Assembly (NCBI GenBank): GCA_904386005.1
Contig: CAJFKR010000001.1
Location: 139,525-203,524, forward strand
DNA length: 64,000 bases
From: Candidatus Flemingiibacterium merdigallinarum
Lineage (GTDB): Bacteria > Bacillota > Clostridia > Oscillospirales > CAG-272
Direction of reading: 5' to 3'
Shown here one piece after another: positions 5,897 to 59,468 of the stretch (its first letter is position 1; every line of letters starts with the position of its first letter). The position numbers were made by a program, and so were the translations under genes. The notes under the pieces are model-generated. The model searched no databases. It worked only from the letters and a program-made list of their open reading frames with translations, and had not been told where the DNA came from.

Positions 5897-7213
5897 TCAG
5901 ATCTTGTTGCCGCCTGAACGGTCGTATCCGCCGCTGATCTGCGGATAGTAGGTGCCGCGGTACCACTCGGGCGGGGACGCGAAGGTCATTTTGATTATCG
6001 TCACGCCGAGCGGGTCGGGCGCGGTTTTCGGCAGATTCTTCATTAATATGCGCTGACCCTTGTATTCGAAATCGATCGGCGTGCCGTCAATGAGAGTCAC
6101 GCTCTCGGGCGCGCTCATGTAGCCGCCGAAGCCCATCTCGCCGTAGGACGGCCAGATCCAGTTCCAGAGGTAGACTATCTTTCCGTCCGCGCTCTGCGTC
6201 GTCGCGCAGACGCCGTTGCCGCCGGCGCGCATGAAGCCCTTCGGACGGCGCACCGGATATACCGCCTCGCCGTTGCGCTCGAGCCACTTGCCGACCTCAT
6301 TCAGCGGCTTTACCGCGTCGCTCGGCACGCTGCCGTCCGGAGCCGGTCCGATGTTGAGTAACAGGTTTCCGCCGCCTGCCGACGCGGTGTTCAGCATCTT
6401 CAAGATGCGCGGCGCGGTGTAGACATAGGGCGTCGCCTGCGCGGCGTCGACATAGCCCCACGAGATGTCGTTGAAGGTCATGCAGGCCTCCCAGTCGTTC
6501 GCCTCAGCGGTGACGTGACCCTCTGGCGTGCCGATGTCCTCAGGCAGGCGCGAGCGGTTGTTGATGATGATATCCGGCTGAAGCTCGCGCAGACGCTGAT
6601 TGCGTTCGAGCGAATCCCAGCCCTCCCAGTTTTCCATAGGGCAGGGTACGTCGTACCAGAGTATGTCGATCTTGCCGTAGTTTGTCAGCAGTTCGACGTT
6701 CAGTGCCTCGATGTAGTCGAGGAAGCGGCGGCGCGCGGCGGTGTCATACGCGCACTTGTAGCCGTCCTCGTGGTGCCAGTCCATAAGCGAGCTGTAGAAG
6801 CCGATGCCAAGCCCGAACTCGCGGCAGGCGCCGACGAACTCGGCGACGATGTCGCGTCCGCAGGCGTTGAACGAGTTGTACGGGTTGACCTTGCTGTTCC
6901 AGAGCGAGAAGCCCTCGTGATGACGCGTCGTCAGCACCATGTACTTCATTCCCGCGGCCTTCGCCTCGGCCGCCCACTCGCGGCAGATGCCCTCGCGCGG
7001 TCTGAACGTGTCGGCGAGACGCGCGTATTCGTCGCGCGGAATGTTCTCGTGCAGCTGCACCCACTCGTTGCGTCCGAGCTGGGAATAGAGTCCGTAGTGG
7101 ATGAACATTCCGAACCGCGCCTCGCGCCACCAAGCCATGCGGCGGTCACGCGTAGCAGCGCACTGCTGCTCGTATTCTGCCTTTGATACTATCTGTGCCA
7201 TTTGTGATATCAT
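5897..7213 (-). CDS. alpha-L-fucosidase, glycoside hydrolase family 29
   Basis: AWWREARFGMFIHYGLYS and TTRHHEGFSLW motifs, at typical GH29 length. The start could instead be the Met at 7201, which has better RBS spacing. Confidence 0.9.
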   Translation of the reverse strand: MISQMAQIVSKAEYEQQCAATRDRRMAWWREARFGMFIHYGLYSQLGRNEWVQLHENIPRDEYARLADTFRPREGICREWAAEAKAAGMKYMVLTTRHHEGFSLWNSKVNPYNSFNACGRDIVAEFVGACREFGLGIGFYSSLMDWHHEDGYKCAYDTAARRRFLDYIEALNVELLTNYGKIDILWYDVPCPMENWEGWDSLERNQRLRELQPDIIINNRSRLPEDIGTPEGHVTAEANDWEACMTFNDISWGYVDAAQATPYVYTAPRILKMLNTASAGGGNLLLNIGPAPDGSVPSDAVKPLNEVGKWLERNGEAVYPVRRPKGFMRAGGNGVCATTQSADGKIVYLWNWIWPSYGEMGFGGYMSAPESVTLIDGTPIDFEYKGQRILMKNLPKTAPDPLGVTIIKMTFASPPEWYRGTYYPQISGGYDRSGGNKI

Positions 7214-29373: not shown

Positions 29374-30351
29374 TCACAACAGCTTTACTCCGTGAGTGGT
29401 CAGATATTCGCCCGCCGCTCGCAGCTCATCGCGCGTCGGCGGCTGACAATCGCTGTCGCGAACATTGCGTCCGAGCGCGGACAGCTTCGAGTTGCCCCAG
29501 GCGTGATAGGGCAGCAGCTTCACGCCGCCGCAGCGCTTCAAGCGTAGGTACAGCGACGCGATATTGTCGAGGTGCCGCTCGTCGAGGTTAACGCCCTTTA
29601 TCAGGATGCACCGCAGCTGTGTCGGCGCGCCGAGCGAGTCGACCGCGAGCAGATTGTCGACTATCACATCGAGCGCGGCGCCGGTGTTCGCGCGATGCCG
29701 AGCGTCGTCCGAGTCCTTGTAGTCCCAGAGCAGCAGGTCGCACAGCTCAACCAGCCGAGGTATGTATTTCGGGTCAAAGCAGCCGCAGGTCTCGACCGCC
29801 GTTCCGATACCGCGTCGGCGGCACTCGGCGAGCAGATCGAGAGCGCAGTCGGGGCTGTACATCGGTTCGCCGCCCGACAGCGTGATTCCACCCTTAGTTC
29901 CCATGAACGCGCGGTCGCGCTCGACAAGGTCGGCGATTTCGGATATCGACATGAGCCGGTACGACGCCTCGAGCGCACCGGTCGGACAGGCGTCGACGCA
30001 GGCAAAGCAGGATTTGCAGCGCGCGCGGTAGATTGTATGCGAGATGGGGATATTGGTGGGAGTGGGTACGTCAGTGTGAACAGCTTCGAATATATGCGCG
30101 CGGCTCGGGCAAGCCTTGGCGCACTCGCCGCAGCCGATGCACTTCTTTTCATAATATAATAGCTGCGCTTCGCGGCTCTGCGTCTCGGGGTTGTGACACC
30201 ACCGGCAGGACAGCGGGCAGCCGGCGAAAAACACTACCGTCCGCACGCCCGGTCCGTCGTGCATACAAAAACGCTGAATATTTGTTACCGGTATCTGAAT
30301 TCCTATTACCTCCTTTCCTTGCCGATGTTTTGTGACGGTTTTGCGAAGCAA
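29374..30351 (-). CDS. Glycyl-radical enzyme activase AE-2 (start uncertain: TTG 30351, or ATT 30300 behind a strong RBS)
   Basis: NIQRFCMHDGPGVRTVVFFAGCPLSCRWCHNPE, plus CIGCGECAKACP and CKSCFACVDACP. Confidence 0.88.
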   Translation of the reverse strand: MLRKTVTKHRQGKEVIGIQIPVTNIQRFCMHDGPGVRTVVFFAGCPLSCRWCHNPETQSREAQLLYYEKKCIGCGECAKACPSRAHIFEAVHTDVPTPTNIPISHTIYRARCKSCFACVDACPTGALEASYRLMSISEIADLVERDRAFMGTKGGITLSGGEPMYSPDCALDLLAECRRRGIGTAVETCGCFDPKYIPRLVELCDLLLWDYKDSDDARHRANTGAALDVIVDNLLAVDSLGAPTQLRCILIKGVNLDERHLDNIASLYLRLKRCGGVKLLPYHAWGNSKLSALGRNVRDSDCQPPTRDELRAAGEYLTTHGVKLL

Positions 30352-30405
30352 ATCGCGGTCTGTGACCGCGAAGTCACAAAACGCGTGGTTTGAAAAATTT
30401 ATTTT

Positions 30406-32568
30406 TCAAACTTTGCCCTCAAGCTCGGCGATTATCATGTTCTGCCAGTCGCAGTTCAGCGTCACGAAGCGTGCGTTCCAGCCCGACACGCGCACCGACA
30501 GCGCTTGATAATTCTCGGGGTGCGCCTGCGCGTCGCGCAGTATGCTCGCGTCGGCGACGTCCGGCTGCATGAAGAAACCGCCGAGCGTAACAAAGCCGCG
30601 CATCAGTCCGACGATAGCGTCGAGTCCCTCGTCGCCGTCGACGCTGTCGGGCAATAGCTTGATGTCGAGTGCCGCGCCGGTCACTTGCTTTGTGAGGTCG
30701 GCGGCGGCATACGACCGGATAATCGCGGTCGCGCCCTCGCGGTCACTGCCCGGGGTCGGCGAGCAGTTCGGGGCGAGCACCTCATGTGCGCGATGTCCGT
30801 GCGGCGACGCGAGCCGGTTCGGCGCCCACTCGAGCTGACGACCGAACGTGCTGACTCCGCTCGGAAAGCGATACCCGCAATTTGTGCCGAGCCTTTGCTC
30901 CATGTCATGACAGATGTCCGAGAAGTCGGAGAGCAGCTTTGAATAGATCGAGTCGACCTCGGGGTTGTCGTTGCCGAAGTAGCGGTACGCGGTCAGCATA
31001 TGCTGTCGGAGCGGCTCGCTTTCGTCCCAGTCCGCGGCGAGAATATCGAAGAATTCATCGAGCCCCAGCAGCCCCTCGTCGAATACGGCTTTCTTAATCG
31101 CGTACAGGCTGTTCACCGTGTCGGCGAGTCCGCCGATGTGCGGCGAGATGACGTTGTAGACCGGTCCGCCCTCGAAGTAGGAATATCCCCTCTCGATACA
31201 GCCCTGCTCGAACAGCGACACTACCGTGCAAGGGGCGGTCGGACGCCAGACGAGCCTGCCGTCAGGGTCGCGCTCGGTCTCGAAGCGCGCGAGCTGACCG
31301 CGTCCGATTCCCTCGACATATGCCTTGAGGTCGCGGACATACGCGTCGTACAGCGCGTCGAAGTCGGCGAAATCTCGATTCTTGTAGTCGGCGAGCGTCG
31401 TGTGCTGCAAAATCGCGAGCGAGTCGAACGGCGTGTAGATGAAGTAGGTCTTGCCCGGGATCTGCACCTCCCAGCAGCCGTCGTTCGCGAACCTTTTCGC
31501 TTCGCGCTCGTCGTATCCGAATTTGGTCAAGGCGTCGATAATCAGCGGCTCGTTGTACAGCGCGATTATGCCGCCGCCGTAGCGGATAGTGTTCGCGACG
31601 CGGTAGAGAAGCTCGTCGCTCGAGTCGGGCGAGATACGGACGGTTATCGGGAAATCGCTGATACCAAGCTCGTCGATTATGTCGAGGACGAGGTAGGTGA
31701 CATTGCACTCGACCGAGTTGTCGTTCTCGTCGATGCCGCCGAGCAGGATATTCTGATAATGCTGCGCATCGCCACTGCCGTAGTCGCCGCCGCTGACCCA
31801 CTCGCAGCCCTTGATGAAGAAGTGCGCGAGCAGCTCGCGCGCTTCGTCGAGTGTGATTTTGCCGTCGGCGAGGTCGCGCTCGAGATACTCGCCGAGCAGC
31901 ATATCAATCCGTCCGATGCCGGGCCAGTTTCCGCAGAGCCGCACAAACGCGAACGTGAACCACAGGCTCTGCACCGCCTCGCGGAAATTCGACGCCGGCT
32001 CGAACGGCACGCGGCGGAGTATGTCGGCGTTGTCGTGATATCCGCCCGCTTCAAGCGCGTTGATATAGCGGTCGCGCCAGATTAGCATTGAGTCAAGGCA
32101 GCTTTTACAGCTTGCGAGAAACTTAAGCCGTCGGGTCGAATACAGGTCGCTGTTAAATATTATCTCCGACATGGATTTTTCTATTTTGTCGTAAAGACCT
32201 ACGACTCCGTCTCTCAGCACCGACACAAAGTCGAGCGTCAGGTGGCTGACGCTGCCGAACACCGGACGACCGTCGATTGTCGCCGGAACGACGTGCGATA
32301 TCGCAAGTCCGAGTGTCGCCGCGCCCGATATAAGCTCGCCGTCACAGATTCGTATCGGCGCGCTCTCGGCGATACGGCGGATCGCGGCGTTGTATTTTTT
32401 CAGGTCGGACAGCTCCGATATGCCGTCGATATCGTCGAGCGGCACCGACATCACGCGTCGGGTGTCGAGCCCGTAGCGGTGGTCATACAGCGATTCATAC
32501 GCGAAGCGTCGCGTCGCGTCCGAAAGACGCACCGGACGCTTTTCTTTTGATACTGTGAAGAATTCCAT
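30406..32568 (-). CDS. Glycyl-radical enzyme GRE-2, 720 aa
   Basis: C-terminal SVRVSGWNARF with Gly codon at 30481..30483. Thiyl loop DGCWE with Cys codon at 31474..31476. GGGGAG RBS before ATG 32568. Confidence 0.9.
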   Translation of the reverse strand: MEFFTVSKEKRPVRLSDATRRFAYESLYDHRYGLDTRRVMSVPLDDIDGISELSDLKKYNAAIRRIAESAPIRICDGELISGAATLGLAISHVVPATIDGRPVFGSVSHLTLDFVSVLRDGVVGLYDKIEKSMSEIIFNSDLYSTRRLKFLASCKSCLDSMLIWRDRYINALEAGGYHDNADILRRVPFEPASNFREAVQSLWFTFAFVRLCGNWPGIGRIDMLLGEYLERDLADGKITLDEARELLAHFFIKGCEWVSGGDYGSGDAQHYQNILLGGIDENDNSVECNVTYLVLDIIDELGISDFPITVRISPDSSDELLYRVANTIRYGGGIIALYNEPLIIDALTKFGYDEREAKRFANDGCWEVQIPGKTYFIYTPFDSLAILQHTTLADYKNRDFADFDALYDAYVRDLKAYVEGIGRGQLARFETERDPDGRLVWRPTAPCTVVSLFEQGCIERGYSYFEGGPVYNVISPHIGGLADTVNSLYAIKKAVFDEGLLGLDEFFDILAADWDESEPLRQHMLTAYRYFGNDNPEVDSIYSKLLSDFSDICHDMEQRLGTNCGYRFPSGVSTFGRQLEWAPNRLASPHGHRAHEVLAPNCSPTPGSDREGATAIIRSYAAADLTKQVTGAALDIKLLPDSVDGDEGLDAIVGLMRGFVTLGGFFMQPDVADASILRDAQAHPENYQALSVRVSGWNARFVTLNCDWQNMIIAELEGKV

Positions 32569-32764
32569 TGCGGTATCTCCCCTCACAAGAATTGATGTGT
32601 GATTTAATTATACCATATATCGCGCCCGATTTGTATTGACAAAACTATGATAAATATGTATAATACTATTAATAAAAAAACCGCTGTCCGGCGCTTCAGT
32701 CGCACGGCAGCGGAAATATATAAATTATGGATTCGCGGTTTTTGCTAAAAATATGAGGGATAAT

Positions 32765-33547
32765 ATGAAAATCGAGACGATAGACATAAAATACCATTTC
32801 TACGGGCGGTTTCGCGACAATCACTGCGACAACGTGCGCAACATCAAGTCGCTGCCCTGGCTGTCGGTCGTGCAGGCGGAGACCGGACGCTATTCTCTGC
32901 GGCTCGGCGGCAGCGAGACATACGAGATCCCGACCGGCGGCTTCTTCATCGCGCCGTCGCAGGTTACACAGGACATCGTCCACCACGTCGACCAAATGTC
33001 GGGGACGATGAACGCGCGCTGGCTGTTCATTGAGATTGAGGTGAACGGCGGCTACAAGCTCGAACACCTCTACGATTTTCCGGCGGTGGTCGGCGGGGAG
33101 ACTTCGATCAAATTGAACCGGCTGTTCGACGATATGTTCGCGTCGCGCACTCTCTGCGAGCGGATGAGTATTTACTACCGGATAATCGACATTCTGCTCG
33201 GCATCGCGTCGCCGAGGTCGGTGATGCTCGCCGGAAATATGCTCGATATCGCCGGCTACATAGCGAGCAACTACAGCCGTGACCTCTCCGTCGCCGAGCT
33301 CGCGGCAAGGGCGCATATGTCCGAGTCGAACTTCTACGCGGTGTTCCGGCGCAACTTCGGTATGTCGCCGATGGCCTATCTGAACCGATACCGTCTGTCG
33401 GCGGCGTCCGTGCTGTTGACCAGAACAGATCTGACGATAGCCGAGGTCGCGTCGTCGGTCGGGTATACCGACCCGCTCTATTTCAGCCGGCAGTTTCATC
33501 GGCTGTTTCAGGCATCGCCTCGCGACTACCGCAAGGCGGGGGTGTGA
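32765..33547 (+). CDS. AraC-family transcriptional regulator, divergent from GRE-2
   Basis: HTH region LSVAELAARAHMSESNFYAVFRRNFGMSPMAYLNRYRL...YTDPLYFSRQF. GAGGGA RBS before ATG 32765. Confidence 0.85.
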   Translation: MKIETIDIKYHFYGRFRDNHCDNVRNIKSLPWLSVVQAETGRYSLRLGGSETYEIPTGGFFIAPSQVTQDIVHHVDQMSGTMNARWLFIEIEVNGGYKLEHLYDFPAVVGGETSIKLNRLFDDMFASRTLCERMSIYYRIIDILLGIASPRSVMLAGNMLDIAGYIASNYSRDLSVAELAARAHMSESNFYAVFRRNFGMSPMAYLNRYRLSAASVLLTRTDLTIAEVASSVGYTDPLYFSRQFHRLFQASPRDYRKAGV

Positions 33548-35346: not shown

Positions 35347-35943
35347 TCAACATTTGCGCCCCATGACGCAGTGCTCCATTATCTCGCATATCTGCTCGAT
35401 TGAGTCGGCGCAGTCGCGTTTCAGCCACTCATTGACTATCGCCATGAGCCCGTTCATGTAAAAGGTCATCATATAGCCCTGTTCCTGCTCGGGAACCTGA
35501 AATCGCTCCAATATCGGTCTGAATATATGCTCAAATATATGATGGTAGGTTTTATATAGCCGGAGCGACTCGGAATTTTTGAGCACGGTGCGAAACAAGC
35601 GCTTGTGTCCGGCGATGTAGGAAAGATAGGGCATCAGATATTCGGGCGTTATCAGATACAGCTCCTCGAGCGGGCATATGCGTATTCTGTTTACAAGGTC
35701 GTCCGACGTCGGCTTCATATGCGAAAAAAAGTCGCTGACGAAATACCGCACGCTTTCCTCGAGCAGGTCGCCTATCGACTCATAGTGCAGATAAAAGGTG
35801 GAGCGGTTGACACCGGCGGCGGCGCACAGCTCCTTTACCGTGATATATTCGATGTCCTTCTTCTCGAGCAGTTCGAGAAACGCCTGATCCATACGAGCCG
35901 CGGTGCTGTAATATTTGCTTTCGGATCTATTCAAGCTTATCAC
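35347..35943 (-). CDS. TetR/AcrR-family transcriptional regulator
   Basis: N-terminal HTH ITVKELCAAAGVNRSTFYLHYESIGDLL. Confidence 0.88.
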   Translation of the reverse strand: MISLNRSESKYYSTAARMDQAFLELLEKKDIEYITVKELCAAAGVNRSTFYLHYESIGDLLEESVRYFVSDFFSHMKPTSDDLVNRIRICPLEELYLITPEYLMPYLSYIAGHKRLFRTVLKNSESLRLYKTYHHIFEHIFRPILERFQVPEQEQGYMMTFYMNGLMAIVNEWLKRDCADSIEQICEIMEHCVMGRKC

Positions 35944-36835
35944 CCTTGTCTTGGCAAAACGCGCGTATTAACATAAATAAAGCTATGGCTATAACTCCAA
36001 TAACTACCGCCGAACCGGTTATCGTGTCCATTAAGCGGCGGTAATCGGTGTCATGCGGTGAAAACCTTGATATCAACGCGGATTGCAAAGTGAGTATAGA
36101 CAGCATCGCGCACACAAGATTGATGGCTTTCGCGGCTGAAAGTATCGGGCTGCCCACTTTGCGGAATTTTACAATATTGATTATCGACAATACCATAATG
36201 TAGAATGTATAAAACGCGGTCATATAAATGAGGTTGCCCGGATAAACGATATCGGGCGCGCTCTTTACCATCAGCACTACCATTCCGGACATAGGTATGA
36301 TGAGGACGAGCAGCATTACCGCCGTGCGGCGGTAGCAGCGCAGCTCGTAGTCCCTGCCCCGCGTCTCCCGCCGCCGGTAGCCCCTCGCCAGCTGCGCGCG
36401 CATGATGATGAGTACCATGTAAAACACCGCGACCGTGAAAAACCATACCGAGCCATACCACAAAGCGGTGATATACCGGTATAGCATATACGCGAAATTG
36501 ACAGTCATTCCTTGATATATGCCGACACTGCCGCGGTAAAAACAATCGGTTGAATATTTTTTCACAAATGTGATCAGCCTTGATTTTTGCTGTGGGTCAT
36601 AAGTGACCAGCGCGCTTTTCATTCGTTTGATCCACCTGATAAGCGCAGGCAGTCGGATTGAAATTATCGTGAGCGAATAGGCTGACGATAGATAAATCGG
36701 ATAGGAAATGACGCTTTCCTCCAAGCCGCCGACGAAAATTACGACAAGCAGGGGAAATGATACGCTCGAAAGCAGTATCAAAACCCACTTTGGAGGAAAT
36801 AGAAGGTCGTGTAGAAGCCTGTTCGCTCCTCGCAT
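35927..36835 (-). CDS. Polytopic membrane protein, unknown function
   Basis: At least 6 hydrophobic segments. Overlaps the tetR start by 17 nt, suggesting coupling. Confidence 0.6.
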   Translation of the reverse strand: MRGANRLLHDLLFPPKWVLILLSSVSFPLLVVIFVGGLEESVISYPIYLSSAYSLTIISIRLPALIRWIKRMKSALVTYDPQQKSRLITFVKKYSTDCFYRGSVGIYQGMTVNFAYMLYRYITALWYGSVWFFTVAVFYMVLIIMRAQLARGYRRRETRGRDYELRCYRRTAVMLLVLIIPMSGMVVLMVKSAPDIVYPGNLIYMTAFYTFYIMVLSIINIVKFRKVGSPILSAAKAINLVCAMLSILTLQSALISRFSPHDTDYRRLMDTITGSAVVIGVIAIALFMLIRAFCQDKGDKLE

Positions 36836-36839
36836 TGCG

Positions 36840-37193
36840 TCACTCCTCGCTGATTTCCTTTGCCAGCTCCATTATATCAAACGCGTATTTGCGCTTGCCT
36901 TTTTCGAGCAACCGCTTGTAGATCGGATAGTTGAAGCCCATGCCCGCGAAGCCGATAAGTCCGATTATTACGCCGAGGATAAACATTGCCGCGCTTCCGT
37001 CGCCGATAACCTCCATCGCAAGGCACATTCCGACTCCGGTGACGAGTGACGAAACAATTCCGAACGTGTAGCTGAAAATTGTCGACGGCAGCTTTGCCTC
37101 AGCGTCGAGCTTGCGCAGCGCGACAACCTTGGAATCTCTCTTGGGCGCGTATTCGTTGGCGAGATGCTCCGCGTAAATCTTATCTGTGTTCAT
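36840..37193 (-). CDS. Small membrane protein (two TM helices), first gene of the TetR operon
   Basis: AGGAGG RBS before ATG 37193. Hydrophobic core IFSYTFGIVSSLVTGVGMCLAMEVIGDGSAAMFILGVIIGLIGFAGM. Confidence 0.55.
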   Translation of the reverse strand: MNTDKIYAEHLANEYAPKRDSKVVALRKLDAEAKLPSTIFSYTFGIVSSLVTGVGMCLAMEVIGDGSAAMFILGVIIGLIGFAGMGFNYPIYKRLLEKGKRKYAFDIMELAKEISEE

Positions 37194-37268
37194 GTTTGTT
37201 TGCCTCCTGTTATTTTGTGATTACAGTATACCACAAAATAAAGTCGGACTGAACAACACAAATTATAA

Positions 37269-37344
37269 TTTGTGTTGACACAAATCATGATTTGTGTTGA
37301 CACAAACGGCGATATGTGTTGACACAAACGGCGATATGTGTTGA
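37269..37344. promoter_or_regulatory. Array of 3.5 near-palindromic 16-bp boxes (TTTGTGTTGACACAAA) phased every 22 bp; putative TetR operator array
   Basis: Boxes at 37269..37284, 37291..37306, 37313..37328, and a partial one at 37337..37344. They lie 76-150 nt upstream of ATG 37193. Confidence 0.6.
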
Positions 37345-37426: not shown

Positions 37427-38962
37427 TTACTGCCCGAACTTGAGCTTCGCGAGACCTCCCTCGGCGGTCTCCTTGTATTGGCGCGAAATGTCGAGTCCGG
37501 TCTCCTTCATCACGTGTATGACCTTGTCGAGCGAAATTTTGCGCGAGTCGACGAGGAAGCTCGCGAGGCTGACCGCGTTTATCGCGCGCATTGCCGCGAC
37601 CGCGTTGCGCTCGATGCAGGGGATCTGCACAAGCCCGCATATCGGGTCGCAGGTCAGACCTAAGTGGTGCTCGATGGCGATTTCGGCGGCGTATTCAATC
37701 TTGTCGAGGTCGAGTCCGAACAGCTCGGCGAGCGACGCCGCGGCCATCGCGCAGGCTGAGCCGATCTCCGCCTGACAGCCGCACTCGCTGCCCGATATCG
37801 ACGCGTTCGTCTTGATGAGGTTGCCGACGACACCGCCCGCCGCGAGCGCGCGCAGTATCTCCATATCGGTATAGTCGCGCTTCTTCTGCTGATAGTATAA
37901 AACCGCCGGCAAAACTCCCGACGAGCCGCAGGTCGGCGCGGTGACTATCGTCTCGGCGCAGGCGTTCTGCTCGCTGACCGCGAACGCGTAAGCGCAGACC
38001 ATGCGGTTCTCGCGCGTCTCGGCACTCTCGTCTATATGCTCGCGGCATAAAAGCTGCTTTGCCTTTTTCTGCACGCCGAGTCCGCCCGGGAGTATGCCCT
38101 CGTCGGCGAGTCCGCGCTCAATGCTCGCTTTCATGCCGCGCCAGATTTCGGAGAGGTAGTCCCAGATGCCGCTGCCCTCGGCGCGCTCGACATACTGCCA
38201 GAGCCGCAGATTGTTCGCGCGGCACTCCTTCGCTATCTTCTCGAACGACGATACCGGATAGACGTCGGGCGGCTCGGGCAGCAGGTATTTGTCGTTCTCG
38301 AATCTTCCTCCGCCGGTGCTGACAACGCGGATGCGGTCAATCTGTGCGCCTTGTCTGAACGCGATCATGTCCATTGTGTTCGGGTGCGGCAGGTCAAGCT
38401 CGGTCGTGTTGAAAATGATATCGCAGCTGACCGGCGCCAATGTGGCTTTGATTACCCGGTCGGTGCCGTGACCGATTCCGGTCTTGGCGAGCGAGCCGTA
38501 GAGTATCACCTTGAAACGGTCGGCGGTCGGGTTCTTCTCGCGGAACATACGCGACGCGCGTTCGGGCGCTATAGTGTGCGAGCTCGAGGGTCCGCGCCCG
38601 ACGAGGTATAGCTCGGTCAGCGATTTCATACCGGTGGGAGAGGGCTCATCTCTGATTTCAGATTGCAGCTCGCTGCCGAAAAAGTAATCGACCGGAACAT
38701 TGAAGATTTTCGCGAGCTTATACACATTCTCGGTTGACGGCAGCGCGAGTCCGGTCTCCCATTTCGAGACGGCGCGGTTGCTGACGCCGAGCCGCTCGCC
38801 GAGCTCTCGCTGTGTGATGCCGCTGCGTCTGCGCAGCGCGGCGAAGGTCTTAGCAAAGGCTGTGTCTTTAGCAAAGGCTGTGTCTTTAGCAAAGGCTGTG
38901 TCTTTAGCAAAGGTTTCGCCTTTAGCAAAGGCTTTGCCTTTGGCAAATTCGTTTTCGTTCAT
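37427..38962 (-). CDS. XRE-type HTH domain fused to single-chain iron-sulfur L-serine dehydratase (beta + alpha domains)
   Basis: HTH ITQRELGERLGVSNRAVSKWETG. Dehydratase motifs GRGPSSSHT and APTCGSSGVLPAVL. N-terminal FAK-type hexapeptide repeats. Confidence 0.85.
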   Translation of the reverse strand: MNENEFAKGKAFAKGETFAKDTAFAKDTAFAKDTAFAKTFAALRRRSGITQRELGERLGVSNRAVSKWETGLALPSTENVYKLAKIFNVPVDYFFGSELQSEIRDEPSPTGMKSLTELYLVGRGPSSSHTIAPERASRMFREKNPTADRFKVILYGSLAKTGIGHGTDRVIKATLAPVSCDIIFNTTELDLPHPNTMDMIAFRQGAQIDRIRVVSTGGGRFENDKYLLPEPPDVYPVSSFEKIAKECRANNLRLWQYVERAEGSGIWDYLSEIWRGMKASIERGLADEGILPGGLGVQKKAKQLLCREHIDESAETRENRMVCAYAFAVSEQNACAETIVTAPTCGSSGVLPAVLYYQQKKRDYTDMEILRALAAGGVVGNLIKTNASISGSECGCQAEIGSACAMAAASLAELFGLDLDKIEYAAEIAIEHHLGLTCDPICGLVQIPCIERNAVAAMRAINAVSLASFLVDSRKISLDKVIHVMKETGLDISRQYKETAEGGLAKLKFGQ

Positions 38963-39003
38963 TGTATGGTTTCCGGCAGCTGCCGGCAGTTTCTCCTTAT
39001 ATA

Positions 39004-39912
39004 TTACGGCTGTTTTAGCTTTGATAGTATATGTGTATACAAATCGTCGACCGATTCAAGCTCACTTTGCGGCAGGATACGCTGTCTGACGATATCTCCG
39101 CCGAAATCGTGTATCAGCAGTCCGTCGACAATCATCTGCGCAAGCGATTCGGGCGGCATATCGCCGAAATATCCGCGGATTAGGTCGCCCTCGAGTCTGA
39201 ACAATTCGGTGGCAATCAACGCCTGCTCGTAGAATTTCGGGGCTTTGACCGCGTCGGCGAAGTCGATGACGCGGAGGTTTCCATCTCGGTCGACGAGGAT
39301 GTTGTCCGAATTGAGGTCGCCGTGGACGAACACGCGCGCCGAGGTGTCGAGCCGGTCGATATACGCGCGGCGGTCGGCGCGGAAGCTCTCGGTGTAGCAG
39401 TCCCAGCGGCGCGAGCGCTCGGGGTCGTTAATGATGTCGACCGAGTTGAAGTCGGGCGCGGGCTGGTTCATGCGGTCGGTGAGCTCTCTCAGCGACGCGG
39501 CAAGTCCGCGCTTTTTTTCGGGGTGGTCATGAATATAGCTGTCGAAGTCGATTCCGTCGATATATTCGCTGACGATATACACGAAACGGTAGCGGTCGCT
39601 GACCTCGCCGCTCGCGACGATACGCGGAGTCGGCACGTCATGCTCGCGCGCGAAGCGTTCGGCGAACAGCTCGGTCGACATATCGGACACGCAGTCGACG
39701 CCGCTCTCGATCGGGGCGTAGATTTTGACGACATACCTGCCTATTCTGAACACGGCGTTAGTGCCGGGCGTCAGCTTTTCGGGCGGGGTATAGTCGAGCC
39801 GTTCGCGGTCGAAGATATATTCGGCGAGCGGCGCGAACGCGTCGGGCGAGTTGAACACACGTCCCCAGTCAGCCCAGCTCGCGATGCTGAAGTTGAAAAG
39901 ATATTCGCTCAA
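39004..39912 (-). CDS. Aminoglycoside/choline-kinase-like phosphotransferase family protein
   Basis: Catalytic loop VFVHGDLNSDNILV and the IDFADA motif. Confidence 0.75.
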   Translation of the reverse strand: MSEYLFNFSIASWADWGRVFNSPDAFAPLAEYIFDRERLDYTPPEKLTPGTNAVFRIGRYVVKIYAPIESGVDCVSDMSTELFAERFAREHDVPTPRIVASGEVSDRYRFVYIVSEYIDGIDFDSYIHDHPEKKRGLAASLRELTDRMNQPAPDFNSVDIINDPERSRRWDCYTESFRADRRAYIDRLDTSARVFVHGDLNSDNILVDRDGNLRVIDFADAVKAPKFYEQALIATELFRLEGDLIRGYFGDMPPESLAQMIVDGLLIHDFGGDIVRQRILPQSELESVDDLYTHILSKLKQP

Positions 39913-40084
39913 ATGAGACTCACCCCCCTCGACATAAATTTTGTATTATCGTGTATTTGCTTGCTGCGTCGGTTCATAGTACTATTGTACCACATTTCGC
40001 TCGGGATTACAACAAGAATTTTCGATGTGATAATATTAACGTAAAAATAGAAGCAGGGAGAGTTTCCTCTCCCTGTAAATATTG

Positions 40085-41626
40085 TTATTCGTCGTCGTCG
40101 ATCGAGGTCTTGGAGCGGACGAGCACCTTCTGCTCGTAGCAGGAGAATATCGAGTCGACGTCGTTTTTAGGCTTTGGCGTCAGGTAGCTGACTATCGGTA
40201 CAATGATGAGACCGAGTGTCATCGCGATTGCGCCGGCGTTTATCGGCGAGTCGATGAAGCCGATGAACATATTCGAAACGGTCAGTCCGACGCCGGTTAT
40301 AAAGCAGACCCAGACCGCGGCTTTCGTGACGCGCTTCATGTACAGACCGTACAGGAACGGCGCGAGGAAGGCTCCGGCGAGCGCGCCCCACGAGATGCCC
40401 ATCAGCTGCGCGATGAACGCGTTCGCCGAGTGGTACTGCATAATCGCGATGACCGCGGATATGACTATAAACACCGCGACAAGTATACGAATCGACAAGA
40501 GCTGCTTCTTTTCACTCATGTTCTTTATAATGCTGCCGCGCAGCAGGTCGAGCGTCAGCGTCGAGCTCGAGGTCAAAACGAGCGACGAAAGCGTCGACAT
40601 CGAAGCCGAAAGCACAAGGATTATGACAATGCCTATGAGTATATCCGGCAGGGTCTCGAGCATGGACGGGATGATCGAGTCGTAGACCGGCGCGCCGTTA
40701 TTGTATTCGACAACGTCGCCGAACAGTCTGCCGAAGCCGCCGAGGAAGTAGCTGCCGCCCGCGACCACGAACGCGAACAGCGTCGAGATGATCGCGCCCT
40801 TCTTGATGTCGTTCTCATGCTTTATCGAGTAGAATTTCTGCACCATCTGCGGCAGTCCCCATGTGCCGAGCGACGTCAGTATAACGACTCCGAGCAGTCC
40901 GAGCGGGTCGGGACCGAAGAACGAGGAGTACGCGCCCTGCATATTCGCCGCTGTGCCGGTCGCCTCGGACGGTATCTGCGAAAGCGAGGTCATAGCCTCC
41001 ATGAAGCCGCCCTTGCCCGAAAGCACCGCGCCGATTACCGCGCAGATGCCGACCAGCATTATTATTCCCTGAAGGAAGTCGTTTATAGCCGTGGCTGTGT
41101 AGCCGCCGAGGATTACGTACACCGCGGTCAGCGCCGCCATCGCGAGCACACACCAGGTGTAGTCGATACCGAACGCCATGCCGAACAGACGCGAGAGTCC
41201 GTTGTAAACCGACGCGGTATAGGGAATGAGGAACACGAACGTGATTATCGCCGCCGCGATTTTGAGCGGCTTTGAGTCGAAGCGTTTTTCGAAGAATTCA
41301 GGCATAGTGCTGGCGTCGAGGTGATGAGTCATTACCCGCGTGCGTCTGCCGAGGATGACCCAGGCAAGCAGACTGCCGATGAGCGCGTTGCCGACGCCGA
41401 TAAAGGTAGAAGCGATGCCGTACTTCCAGCCGAACTGTCCCGAATAGCCGACGAAAATGACGGCCGAGAAGTATGAGGTGCCGTACGCGAACGCGGTCAG
41501 CCAAGGTCCGACTGAGCGTCCGCCAAGCACAAAGCTGTTGACACTGGTCGCGCGCCTACGGCAGTATATGCCGACCGCTACCGTCATGGCTACAAATATC
41601 AGTATCATCAGGATTTTTGCAAACAT
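40085..41626 (-). CDS. Sodium:solute symporter (SSF) family transporter
   Basis: About 13 TM segments and an SSF-like N-terminus (FVLGGRSVGPWLTAFAYGTSYFSA). AAAGGAA RBS before ATG 41626. Confidence 0.85.
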   Translation of the reverse strand: MFAKILMILIFVAMTVAVGIYCRRRATSVNSFVLGGRSVGPWLTAFAYGTSYFSAVIFVGYSGQFGWKYGIASTFIGVGNALIGSLLAWVILGRRTRVMTHHLDASTMPEFFEKRFDSKPLKIAAAIITFVFLIPYTASVYNGLSRLFGMAFGIDYTWCVLAMAALTAVYVILGGYTATAINDFLQGIIMLVGICAVIGAVLSGKGGFMEAMTSLSQIPSEATGTAANMQGAYSSFFGPDPLGLLGVVILTSLGTWGLPQMVQKFYSIKHENDIKKGAIISTLFAFVVAGGSYFLGGFGRLFGDVVEYNNGAPVYDSIIPSMLETLPDILIGIVIILVLSASMSTLSSLVLTSSSTLTLDLLRGSIIKNMSEKKQLLSIRILVAVFIVISAVIAIMQYHSANAFIAQLMGISWGALAGAFLAPFLYGLYMKRVTKAAVWVCFITGVGLTVSNMFIGFIDSPINAGAIAMTLGLIIVPIVSYLTPKPKNDVDSIFSCYEQKVLVRSKTSIDDDE

Positions 41627-41649
41627 ACGAACATTCCTTTCGAGATATT

Positions 41650-41980
41650 TTCGAAAGGGCAAAAGAAAACGCCCTTCCGTAATCGTAATTACAGAGGACG
41701 AATAAATCGTGTTACCACCTCAGTTCGCCTGCCCCTCACGAGACAGACCTCAGAAAGTACTGGACAGACGTGCGCACGCGTCCACATACTCGGCGCCAGA
41801 TAACGGCGGCGTTCCGTTACCGCTTAATTGTACAGGCAAATGAGCCCTTCCGTTCGCAGTACAGCTCTCGGGATGTAATATTACTCTGCGATGCTCCGCG
41901 CCTCTCACCAACCGGCGGCTCTCTGTGGTATCGCGTGCGAGTATATCCGGACAAATCCGGTTCCCGGTCACAGCTTTTAT
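41650..41980 (-). promoter_or_regulatory. T-box riboswitch leader
   Basis: On the minus strand: Stem I AG-box plus distal loop AGAGAGCCGCCGGTTGGTGAGAGGCG, F-box CCGTTA, AGTA box, and T-box core AACTGAGGTGGTAACACG (plus coordinates about 41708..41725). Confidence 0.7.
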
Positions 41981-41986
41981 ATTTTT

Positions 41987-42015
41987 ATTATATCACCATA
42001 TTGAAGCTTTGTCAA
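41987..42015 (-). promoter_or_regulatory. sigma-A promoter of the T-box leader (TTGACA-17-TATAAT, exact)
   Basis: On the minus strand, TTGACA is at 42010..42015 and TATAAT at 41987..41992. Confidence 0.65.
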
Positions 42016-58037: not shown

Positions 58038-59468
58038 ATGTACCGAGTATTTTCATTGATATGCGTTCTATCGCTGCTAATGGCAAGTGTTTCATGTGTC
58101 AGTGATGACAACGATGTTGTGACGACTAATGAATCATCTCAATCAGAAGTTGAAACAACAGAGTTATTTACTGTTGAAATTAAGGATTTTGACAACTATG
58201 ATTTCAGATTCTACACATATTCAACAGGCGTTGATATGTATGCGCCGGAAGAGGAGACAGGCGATATTGTAAATGACGCGGTATACCGTCGAAATCGCGA
58301 AATCGAAGAAATGTACAATATCACTATCAGTACGATTGACAGCGGCACGTTGAATGAAAGAGAACATAGAGATGCGATTAATACAATGATCAACGCGGGC
58401 GATGAGGCTTGCGATGTTGTATTGAATATTGGAAAGCAGCTGGCAAACCAAGCGCTGGATGGTTATTATATCAATATGTATGATATTGAGGAATTCGACT
58501 TCGACAAATCGTGGTGGTCAAAGCAGCTTGTAGAAGATTTATCGTTTTCTGGTTGTATGTATTTTTGCTCAAACAATCTCCATTATGAGGAATTTGCGGC
58601 TTCGAAGGTGTTTTACTTCAACAAAGATAAAATCGACGAATACCAACTGGATGATCCATATGAGCTTGTTTTAAGCGGAAAATGGGTAATTAATCGAATG
58701 ATTGAAATGACACGAGATGTTAACGAGGATTTGAATGGCAACAATATAGCTGACAACGAAGATTTTTACGGCTTGCTGACTACTGTGTCACATAATGCGT
58801 GGGCAGTTTGCTTTGATATCCCAGTGTGGGAAAAAAATAATGACTCAATTGAATTGGTGGCAATGAGCGATAAAATGTTAAATGCATTCGATAAAATCCA
58901 CTCGTGGTATTATGACAGCATTGGATTATATACGTGGGATAGTTACTCAAAAGCAATAAATGAGATGCGCGATATGTTCAAAGCCGGGCAGGGGATGTTT
59001 GTATTTGGTTTTGTGGGTGATTCCGGCACATATTATAGAGATACCGATGTCGATTATGGTATTGTACCATTTCCAAAATACGATGAAAATCAAGAAAATT
59101 ATCGTGTATTCTTCGGAGCTAATACGTCAAATATGTTTGCCATCCCGATATTTGCATCCGATAAATCAAGAACCGGTCTAATATTAGAGGCGCTTTCGGC
59201 TAAAGGATATGAGGAATTGATACCGGTATATTATGAGGTCGCACTCAAAGATAAATATATGAGAGATGAAACTTCGGTAGAAATTCTTGACATTATTACT
59301 GAAAACAGAACCATCAGCTTTTCATATTGTTATGACAATTGGGATGCCGGTCTTGGCTTTGGTAATTGTTTTCAGAGTGAATTTAAAGATAGTTTCTCTA
59401 CATTCTACGCTGCTCGTGAAAATATTGTAAAATCACGCATACAGAAAGTAGTTGAAGCTTTTACTTAA
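58038..59468 (+). CDS. ABC transporter sugar/oligosaccharide-binding lipoprotein (AT-rich islet), with no adjacent permease genes
   Basis: Lipobox LLMASVSCVSD at ATG 58038. Paralog of 33778..35256. Confidence 0.85.
   Translation: MYRVFSLICVLSLLMASVSCVSDDNDVVTTNESSQSEVETTELFTVEIKDFDNYDFRFYTYSTGVDMYAPEEETGDIVNDAVYRRNREIEEMYNITISTIDSGTLNEREHRDAINTMINAGDEACDVVLNIGKQLANQALDGYYINMYDIEEFDFDKSWWSKQLVEDLSFSGCMYFCSNNLHYEEFAASKVFYFNKDKIDEYQLDDPYELVLSGKWVINRMIEMTRDVNEDLNGNNIADNEDFYGLLTTVSHNAWAVCFDIPVWEKNNDSIELVAMSDKMLNAFDKIHSWYYDSIGLYTWDSYSKAINEMRDMFKAGQGMFVFGFVGDSGTYYRDTDVDYGIVPFPKYDENQENYRVFFGANTSNMFAIPIFASDKSRTGLILEALSAKGYEELIPVYYEVALKDKYMRDETSVEILDIITENRTISFSYCYDNWDAGLGFGNCFQSEFKDSFSTFYAARENIVKSRIQKVVEAFT

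Follow-up and report, generated by a model that had tools for sequence, protein, structure and literature searches.

What does an L-serine dehydratase do with a DNA-binding domain, and does that domain act on the gene that encodes it? The question is posed by a gene at 37427..38962 on the minus strand of a 64-kb window (64,000 nt; contig CAJFKR010000001.1, positions 139,525..203,524), by which we mean the whole stretch of DNA analysed; positions below are those of the window. According to the open reading frame list and the sequence, the gene encodes 511 aa plus stop and joins a helix-turn-helix (HTH) domain to a serine dehydratase (SDH), an architecture we refer to as HTH-SDH. An earlier note on this DNA had recognised the fusion and proposed that the protein might repress its own or neighbouring genes. 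On balance, and with somewhat better than even confidence, we regard the family as a trigger-enzyme-like bifunctional protein, that is, an Fe-S serine dehydratase that is catalytically active and that, as a dimer, binds an upstream palindrome and regulates its own promoter.

The window protein and its surroundings were compared with several sets of relatives. A cluster survey covered the 120 best clusters from a 5.8-billion-protein collection, at 63-92% identity to the window protein, and the conservation of each region is given as mean pairwise identity over 119 family members. The operator comparison set comprised 121 loci (779 kb) with 22 distinct fusion lineages and 70 HTH-less SDH genes, and catalytic residues were compared across 20 fusion and 70 non-fusion relatives (90 loci). 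A metagenome scan found an HTH in 6 of 80 loci; the remainder, mostly HTH-less SDHs, were kept as controls. L-numbers denote compared loci and P-numbers proteins, L033 and its protein P0001 representing a relative 92% identical to the window protein.

Architecture and spread of the fusion

Pfam matches to the HTH, SDH_beta and SDH_alpha domains occurred together in 119 of the 120 best clusters, the lone exception being a 434-aa entry that begins within the HTH. The same HTH-linker-SDH frame recurred in at least 118 clusters and in 22 independently assembled lineages, and the identical 511-aa protein was called on 23 contigs read, of 30 index blocks. That two genes were merged by a frameshift, or that the assembly is chimeric, therefore has a negligible probability. 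Typical fusions are 475-485 aa long and come from Clostridia, Ruminococcaceae and 'Eubacteriales' metagenome-assembled genomes of rumen and gut. In current annotations they go under the name 'helix-turn-helix domain-containing protein' or under that of 'L-serine ammonia-lyase ... subunit alpha', neither of which covers the whole protein. A full-text search of the searchable literature returned no description of the HTH-SDH fusion. Of the earlier suggestion that the architecture might prove both widespread and characterised, only the first half was borne out: the fusion is widespread but, within that literature, uncharacterised, the concept of an enzyme with a DNA-binding domain being itself already known.

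Most fusions formed one clade in a neighbour-joining tree of the SDH part, which carries no support values. Two HTH-less genes, L007 and L045, nested within this clade and both retain a linker-like N-terminal tail, which suggests that they lost the HTH secondarily. Outside the main clade lay the fusions with divergent HTHs, L036 and L037-39, together with L006, whose HTH is of the common type. When protein representatives were searched with the HTH plus beta N-terminus, the fusions collapsed into a few 50% clusters and short fragments were among the top matches. The protein-representative search also returned proteins with many tandem XRE-type HTH units (P0121, P0123, P0168 and others), such as one of 1002 aa with 11 matched stretches and one of 4162 aa with 23.

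The window protein, encoded throughout on the minus strand, opens with a disordered repeat extension; next come an HTH of the XRE/Cro-C1 type and a variable linker, and the remainder is an iron-sulfur L-serine dehydratase. The HTH domain (residues 38-95, 38678..38851) was matched by Pfam HTH_3 (PF01381, gathering score 23 bits) at residues 42-94 with 61.2 bits. An AlphaFold2 model built on 119 sequences (mean predicted local distance difference test, pLDDT, 83.5; 76-92 over the HTH) gave a five-helix fold (helices 20-47, 51-58, 62-70, 77-87 and 91-95), which Foldseek aligned with the P22 c2 repressor (3jxb, 2r1j) at a root-mean-square deviation of 0.9-1.0 Å over 60 residues and 35% identity. 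There follow an acidic/polar linker (residues 96-111, 38630..38677; pLDDT <50 at residues 100-104), a short beta domain (residues 112-235, 38258..38629) with its GPSSSHT loop at residues 124-130, and the catalytic, cluster-binding alpha domain (residues 236-511, 37430..38257). Pfam SDH_beta matched residues 114-174 with 68.2 bits, at profile positions 1-67 of 155 only, and SDH_alpha matched residues 264-505 with 254.7 bits. The whole protein scored 367.4 bits against NCBIfam TIGR00720 (sda_mono, single-chain L-serine ammonia-lyase, also called L-serine dehydratase, LSD, of 'type 2'), above the equivalog cutoff of 345.1 bits, and the modelled body matched 4rqo with a target-normalised template modelling score of 0.78 (Foldseek). 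These results agree with the earlier assignment of a Cro/C1-type HTH to about residues 40-95 and of GRGPSSSHT and CGSSGVLPAVL motifs, both of which are present; the claim of a fusion to a full single-chain dehydratase stands as to the fusion and falls as to 'full', given the partial SDH_beta match.

The start at 38962 is, on our reading of the sequence, the sole in-frame ATG, GTG or TTG that preserves the entire HTH. We rejected alternative starts that would trim the repeat extension or add residues, as from the upstream stop to the HTH the sequence offers no other ATG, GTG or TTG in frame; a CTG that is in frame at 38989, just 3 nt past GGAG, was rejected as well. The N-terminal extension (residues 1-35) is lineage-specific and absent from most homologues. 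It is encoded by an 18-nt in-frame tandem repeat of 5.4 copies, (F-A-K-D-T-A)n, at 38850..38947 on the minus strand (residues about 6-38; Tandem Repeats Finder score 147, 91% matches), which multiplies a native D-F-A-K segment found before helix 1 in other homologues. P0001 has about 3.4 copies, two units fewer (L033 3121..3200). The extension is predicted to be disordered (pLDDT 31-45; residues 1-28 disordered in the model) and is probably functionally neutral.

The best solved relative of the dehydratase part is the Legionella pneumophila enzyme 4RQO (E 2.5e-75). Alignment with it predicts Cys396 (37775..37777), Cys438 (37649..37651) and Cys449 (37616..37618; all minus strand) as the [4Fe-4S] ligands, matching C361, C403 and C414 of the 4rqo chain (native C343, C385 and C396), and pairs His165 (codon 38468..38470), the His of GxGHGTD, with 4rqo chain His79, native His61. 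In the Legionella enzyme (LpLSD), His61 is the catalytic base, its replacement abolishes activity, and the three Cys are the cluster ligands (PMC12647591). The integrity of the Cys ligands, which the earlier note had flagged for checking, was confirmed: all three are present and invariant in the 119 family members and the 90 loci. The GPSSSHT loop (G124-T130) and His165 are also invariant, the His being found in all 20 HTH-bearing and 70 non-HTH relatives, so that fusions and stand-alone relatives cannot be told apart by how well their catalytic residues are conserved. The window protein lacks about 40 residues that the Legionella enzyme has in its beta domain (4rqo chain 88-128). Stand-alone relatives of about 395-400 aa have the same shortened beta domain, and the shortening therefore belongs to the SDH subtype and is unrelated to the fusion; judged by this shared feature, the window enzyme is of a short subtype rather than of the canonical type 2 layout. 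This pattern is best explained by a [4Fe-4S] L-serine dehydratase of short single-chain form that is catalytically competent. We also asked whether cysteines specific to the fusions might hint at redox sensing; across the 90 loci, enrichment in fusions was confined to Cys137 and Cys323, neither of which was exclusive to them, and the idea was dropped.

Conservation was unevenly distributed along the family, with mean pairwise identities of 56% in the HTH, 16% in the linker, 59% in the beta domain and 76% in the alpha domain. The recognition helix, S61-[ND]-R-A-V-S-K-W-E69, was conserved at 86-100% per position, except at position 62, where 75% of the family have Asn and 19% have Asp. The residues expected to face DNA (S61, R63, S66 and K67) fall in this stretch, the most conserved of the HTH, and its conservation extends to lineages that lack the upstream palindrome described below. 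The HTH is under purifying selection. With both HTH and catalytic residues conserved, the protein has the appearance of a functional enzyme joined to a functional DNA-binding domain.

A palindrome upstream of HTH-SDH genes

Comparing the upstream regions of orthologues, we found a 15-bp palindrome, TCAACY-N3-RGTTGA, 100-165 nt upstream of HTH-SDH start codons. It was exact in L002, L003, L004, L006, L025, L029, L034, L115, L118 and L119 and carried one mismatch in L001 and L005; TCAACTAAAAGTTGA and TCAACCATCGGTTGA are copies of this putative family operator. The palindrome was thus present in 12 of the 22 fusion lineages and in none of the 70 HTH-less SDH genes (Fisher p = 1.8e-9), an exclusive co-occurrence with HTH-bearing genes. 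Exact TCAAC-N5-GTTGA occurred in 11 copies (10 distinct) in the 779 kb, all at this spot upstream of HTH-SDH genes, where about 0.74 would be expected. It was missing from the fusions with divergent recognition helices, L036 (TDKAVSKWE) and L037-39 (SVNTLSNWE), as expected if the HTH reads the palindrome. The last three loci, on human-gut contigs of 205-498 kb, represent a second kind of HTH-SDH, whose HTH (GVSVNTLSNWEKGETSPS) is very different and which has no TCAAC...GTTGA site; it could have arisen by a separate fusion event or by strong divergence.

The arms of the palindrome are conserved, its 3-nt centre varies and compensatory changes are absent, a combination that fits protein recognition rather than an RNA hairpin. 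Neighbouring genes differ in nearly every lineage, except for a GDSL-lipase gene upstream in one sub-clade, and therefore the site travels with the HTH-SDH gene itself. The half-site centres lie 10 bp apart. Together these features point to a palindrome read by a twofold-symmetric protein dimer, not to an RNA hairpin or a terminator of the upstream gene. As a functional clue, a conserved neighbourhood was sought and none was found across the lineages compared, nor was a regulator gene a conserved neighbour.

In six lineages the spacing from the palindrome to a TTTAYA -35 box downstream is fixed at 29-31 nt, the intervening sequence being unconserved; in other lineages the palindrome ends 8, 18, 18, 21, 21 or 25 nt before a TTGACA-like -35. 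For L006 an alternative promoter would put the palindrome over the -10. A site upstream of the -35 argues against simple promoter occlusion, and we lean towards control from an activator-type position. Repression specifically, as first proposed, finds no support, the operator, where present, lying upstream of the -35 and not over the core promoter. A further observation concerns the promoters of the group with the 29-31 nt spacing: in L004, L005, L025, L034 and L118, and also in the HTH-less L045, the -35 box TTTATA is directly followed by GTTGR, equivalent to one operator half-site, which could be a second contact point or reflect shared promoter ancestry.

In the mechanism that we propose, a [4Fe-4S] L-serine dehydratase would have acquired, at its N terminus and through a flexible linker, a DNA-binding domain of XRE type, and the dimeric enzyme would place two HTH domains on the 15-bp palindrome. 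As this lies just upstream of the -35 of its own promoter, the protein would control its own synthesis. The likely modulator would be the state of the catalytic domain: whether L-serine is bound and the beta and alpha domains have closed, or whether the oxygen-labile cluster is in place; the HTH tether, about 15 residues before the GPSSSHT active-site loop, would offer a route by which serine-driven closure could be felt. A reference cited in PMC12647591 reports that the Legionella enzyme changes conformation when it binds its cluster. Binding of the palindrome by the HTH, the direction of regulation and the signal are what we infer from these comparisons. The more specific idea of a 'sense-and-degrade' switch, in which the catalytic state (serine bound, cluster present or lost) sets the engagement of the two tethered HTHs with TCAACY-N3-RGTTGA, is tentative and in our view possible but doubtful. 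Were it true, one protein would link serine catabolism, perhaps along with other genes in lineages that, like this one, lack the cis site, to substrate supply and anaerobiosis, and would be the first Fe-S dehydratase to serve as a transcription factor that binds DNA with a domain dedicated to it.

A number of points weigh against this mechanism. The palindrome was missing, within the DNA available, from 10 of the 22 fusion lineages, the window lineage included, and a second palindrome target was not seen in any compared locus, leaving no definable regulon. The distances from operator to -35 (8, 18, 18, 21, 21, 25 and 29-31 nt) are not cleanly helix-phased; the first ten sites had looked phased, and we gave up helical phasing as evidence for activation when two added sites and alternative promoters (21 and 25 nt) weakened it. 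Several operator-bearing promoters are near consensus at both -35 and -10 and should not need an activator. Promoter positions throughout are consensus matches and hence predictions. The AlphaFold2 model covers a monomer; in an SDH dimer, two HTHs would have to reach one palindrome. The association of HTH and palindrome is one of co-occurrence, from which binding would follow only by inference.

The window locus

The window lineage is among those without the operator. TCAACY-N3-RGTTGA was absent from the whole 64-kb window. The sole match with one mismatch, at 58139, lies within a lipoprotein coding sequence and was discarded, and matches with two mismatches numbered 31 against 21 +/- 4.5 expected, none of them at a promoter of interest. 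Because the family motif is absent from the window, self-regulation is, by this comparison, not evident here. The proposal of self-regulation thus finds support at the level of the family, in the operator-like palindrome at the gene's own promoter in 12 of 22 lineages, and none at the locus for which it was made.

Upstream of the HTH-SDH gene lies a gene for an APH-family phosphotransferase (39004..39912, minus strand; Pfam APH 61.9 bits), which ends 41 nt before the HTH-SDH start. A consensus scan found no promoter-like or terminator-like site in this 41-nt gap, and the two genes are probably co-transcribed. The likely promoter of the pair is a promoter-like site, TTGTAA-17-TACAAT with TG, at 39984..40012 (minus strand; 9/12 matches in a consensus scan), and it is preceded by the terminator-like hairpin of an SSF symporter gene (40075..40054, minus strand). 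The APH/HTH-SDH pairing recurs in L033 and is not kept in other lineages. Within a sister sub-clade a GDSL-lipase gene precedes the HTH-SDH gene; L115 has promoter and operator there, and L031, L114, L120 and L121 have neither. Read from these comparisons, the cis site has been lost repeatedly and the HTH kept intact; this implies that the domain either has targets at other genomic sites or is decaying slowly. We suggest that the window lineage would have lost its cis site and that the gene would ride behind the APH-like kinase gene on that gene's promoter. The window protein would then be chiefly an enzyme, and its conserved HTH, should it act at all, would do so at other places in the genome.

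Several other features of the window were noted in passing. Ahead of the PutP-like SSF symporter gene (41662..40085) and behind a perfect TTGACA-17-TATAAT promoter (42015..41987) lies a T-box-like leader (41691..41980, minus strand; Rfam RF00230 71.8 bits, below the gathering score of 93, E 1e-15), in which UAC followed by A is one candidate for the specifier codon. On the other side, between the HTH-SDH stop and the next operon (37193..35347), which encodes membrane proteins of 117 and 302 aa and a TetR regulator, four tandem 22-nt near-palindromes (ACACAAAnnnnnnTTTGTGTTG) occupy 37256..37343; this is probably a TetR operator array overlapping the promoter of that operon. A few genes downstream of HTH-SDH, by annotation, at about 29374..33499 (L028 13416..17536), is a group consisting of a glycyl-radical enzyme (PFL-like, about 720 aa) with an adjoining radical-SAM activase and an AraC-type regulator.

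Alternative explanations and known systems

The earlier note had pointed to a perfect 14-nt palindrome just 5' of the ATG, which could be taken as the site of local repression. The palindrome, CCGGCAGCTGCCGG (ccggcagctgccgg), is indeed perfect and immediately upstream of the start codon, though it lies at 38973..38986 and not at 38971..38984, and it is identical in L033. That relative is too close for retention to count as conservation, and the palindrome is absent at 73-82% identity (L031, L114, L120 and L121). Perfect 14-nt palindromes number 11 in the window and 4.2 +/- 1.9 in shuffled sequence, so one at this spot is not significant alone. ccggcagctgccgg furthermore bears no resemblance to TCAACY-N3-RGTTGA, although the recognition helix SNRAVSKWE is identical to that of L029 and L115, which use TCAAC...GTTGA. 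It falls in the 41-nt gap, which has no promoter-like site, in the spacer between a Shine-Dalgarno-like AGGAG (38993..38997, minus strand), 30 nt upstream of the ATG at 38962, and that ATG. We therefore rejected it as a family operator and consider repression through this site very improbable. An RNA hairpin that affects translation is at least as likely. As RNA the palindrome would form a 5-bp GC hairpin of -9.6 kcal/mol (z -2.2 in a 31-nt context, -0.9 in 61 nt), only mildly more stable than shuffled sequence; the AGGAG-ATG distance would be too long for normal Shine-Dalgarno spacing unless a hairpin shortens it, and a weak GGAA closer to the ATG lies partly inside the stem. We take 38973..38986 to be a small leader hairpin that may affect translation. 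In L031 (82% identity) a hairpin at 5935..6012 (-24.4 kcal/mol, z -4.3) likewise lies between a Shine-Dalgarno-like GGGAGAAAGGAAG and the start codon, and the two may represent a shared translational feature of operator-less lineages.

Two broader alternatives set aside one or the other half of the proposed bifunctional protein. The protein could be a plain enzyme whose XRE-like domain is a structural, oligomerisation or protein-interaction module, as in the hydroxypropylphosphonate epoxidase HppE, and possibly a relic here, with the palindrome read by another factor. Such a role would suit the window and the nine other lineages without the palindrome, the operon-like position behind the APH-like gene, the appearance among the Foldseek matches of HppE, an enzyme with an HTH-like N-terminal domain, and a link between HTH and palindrome that consists in co-occurrence. 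It would leave unexplained why the palindrome is found solely upstream of HTH-bearing genes (12/22 vs 0/70), why the HTH is most conserved at those residues of its recognition helix that are expected to face DNA, even in operator-less lineages, and which factor would read the site when no regulator gene is a conserved neighbour; we consider it unlikely. Conversely, the protein could be mainly a transcription factor, its dehydratase body reduced to a serine- or redox-sensing ligand domain with little catalysis. BzdR-type regulators show such an evolutionary route (PMC3602430), the HTH-linker-enzyme layout is the same, and relatives have a conserved operator. This reading is quite improbable, as the GPSSSHT loop, the His61 equivalent and the three Cys are all invariant, as in stand-alone relatives, the alpha domain is the most conserved region at 76% identity, and the whole protein exceeds the TIGR00720 equivalog cutoff. 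The HTH-less forms nested in the fusion clade likewise imply that the body would still work alone. For the bifunctional protein, the predicted operator makes the trigger-enzyme idea concrete and testable. If the protein binds the palindrome, it would constitute a minimal one-protein circuit from amino-acid catabolism to transcription, in a family common in uncultured rumen and gut Clostridia; it might also be a new type of redox or serine sensor, and would offer a compact operator and protein part for synthetic control in anaerobes.

Among enzymes, Legionella 4RQO shares the beta-then-alpha single chain, the GPSSSHT loop, the catalytic His and the three Cys ligands. It differs in having no DNA-binding domain and in possessing the roughly 40 beta-domain residues (4rqo chain 88-128) that the window protein lacks. 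The window protein also ends in ...AKLKFGQ, without the C-terminal Cys458 that serves as fourth ligand and intrinsic inhibitor in LpLSD. Closer are the stand-alone short SDHs (about 395-400 aa) of Clostridia, Bacteroidales (Tidjanibacter, Barnesiella, Coprobacter) and Anaeroplasmataceae, which are 47-67% identical over residues 112-507 and have the same short beta domain and Cys set; these begin M-[KQ]-S-[IL]..ELY.IG.GPSSSHT, with no HTH and no TCAACY-N3-RGTTGA upstream.

For the N-terminal half, HppE, found in the Foldseek list for the HTH part, is likewise an enzyme with an XRE-like N-terminal helical fold, and that domain is not known to bind DNA; HTH-SDH differs in its strongly conserved recognition helix and associated palindrome. 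BzdR (PMC3602430) has the same N-to-C layout of XRE HTH, linker and enzyme fold (shikimate-kinase-like). Its enzyme-like part is, according to that paper, a regulator domain evolved from an enzyme, whereas the catalytic residues of HTH-SDH are intact.

A further parallel concerns the cluster. Aconitase/IRP1 and B. subtilis CitB are Fe-S dehydratases that moonlight as regulators, their [4Fe-4S] cluster being a Lewis acid with a labile fourth iron. LSDs have been likened to aconitase (PMC12647591). In aconitase/IRP1 and CitB the body of the apo-enzyme binds RNA, with no added domain, and HTH-SDH by contrast carries a separate fused HTH; by analogy, cluster loss may act as a redox or iron signal in HTH-SDH.

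The searchable literature yielded no account of an Fe-S dehydratase to which a dedicated DNA-binding domain is joined. Few trigger enzymes with a DNA-binding domain of their own are known to us, and none joins an oxygen-sensitive Fe-S dehydratase to an HTH. The familiar examples are PutA (ribbon-helix-helix with proline dehydrogenase/pyrroline-5-carboxylate dehydrogenase), BirA (winged HTH with biotin ligase) and NadR (HTH with nicotinamide mononucleotide adenylyltransferase/kinase). RbkR (PMC5397151) is a further one. HTH-SDH departs from trigger enzymes in having its site upstream of the -35, not over the core promoter, and in a window copy without the cis site; it resembles them in uniting intact catalytic and DNA-binding domains in one chain and, in many orthologues, in having a palindrome at its own promoter.

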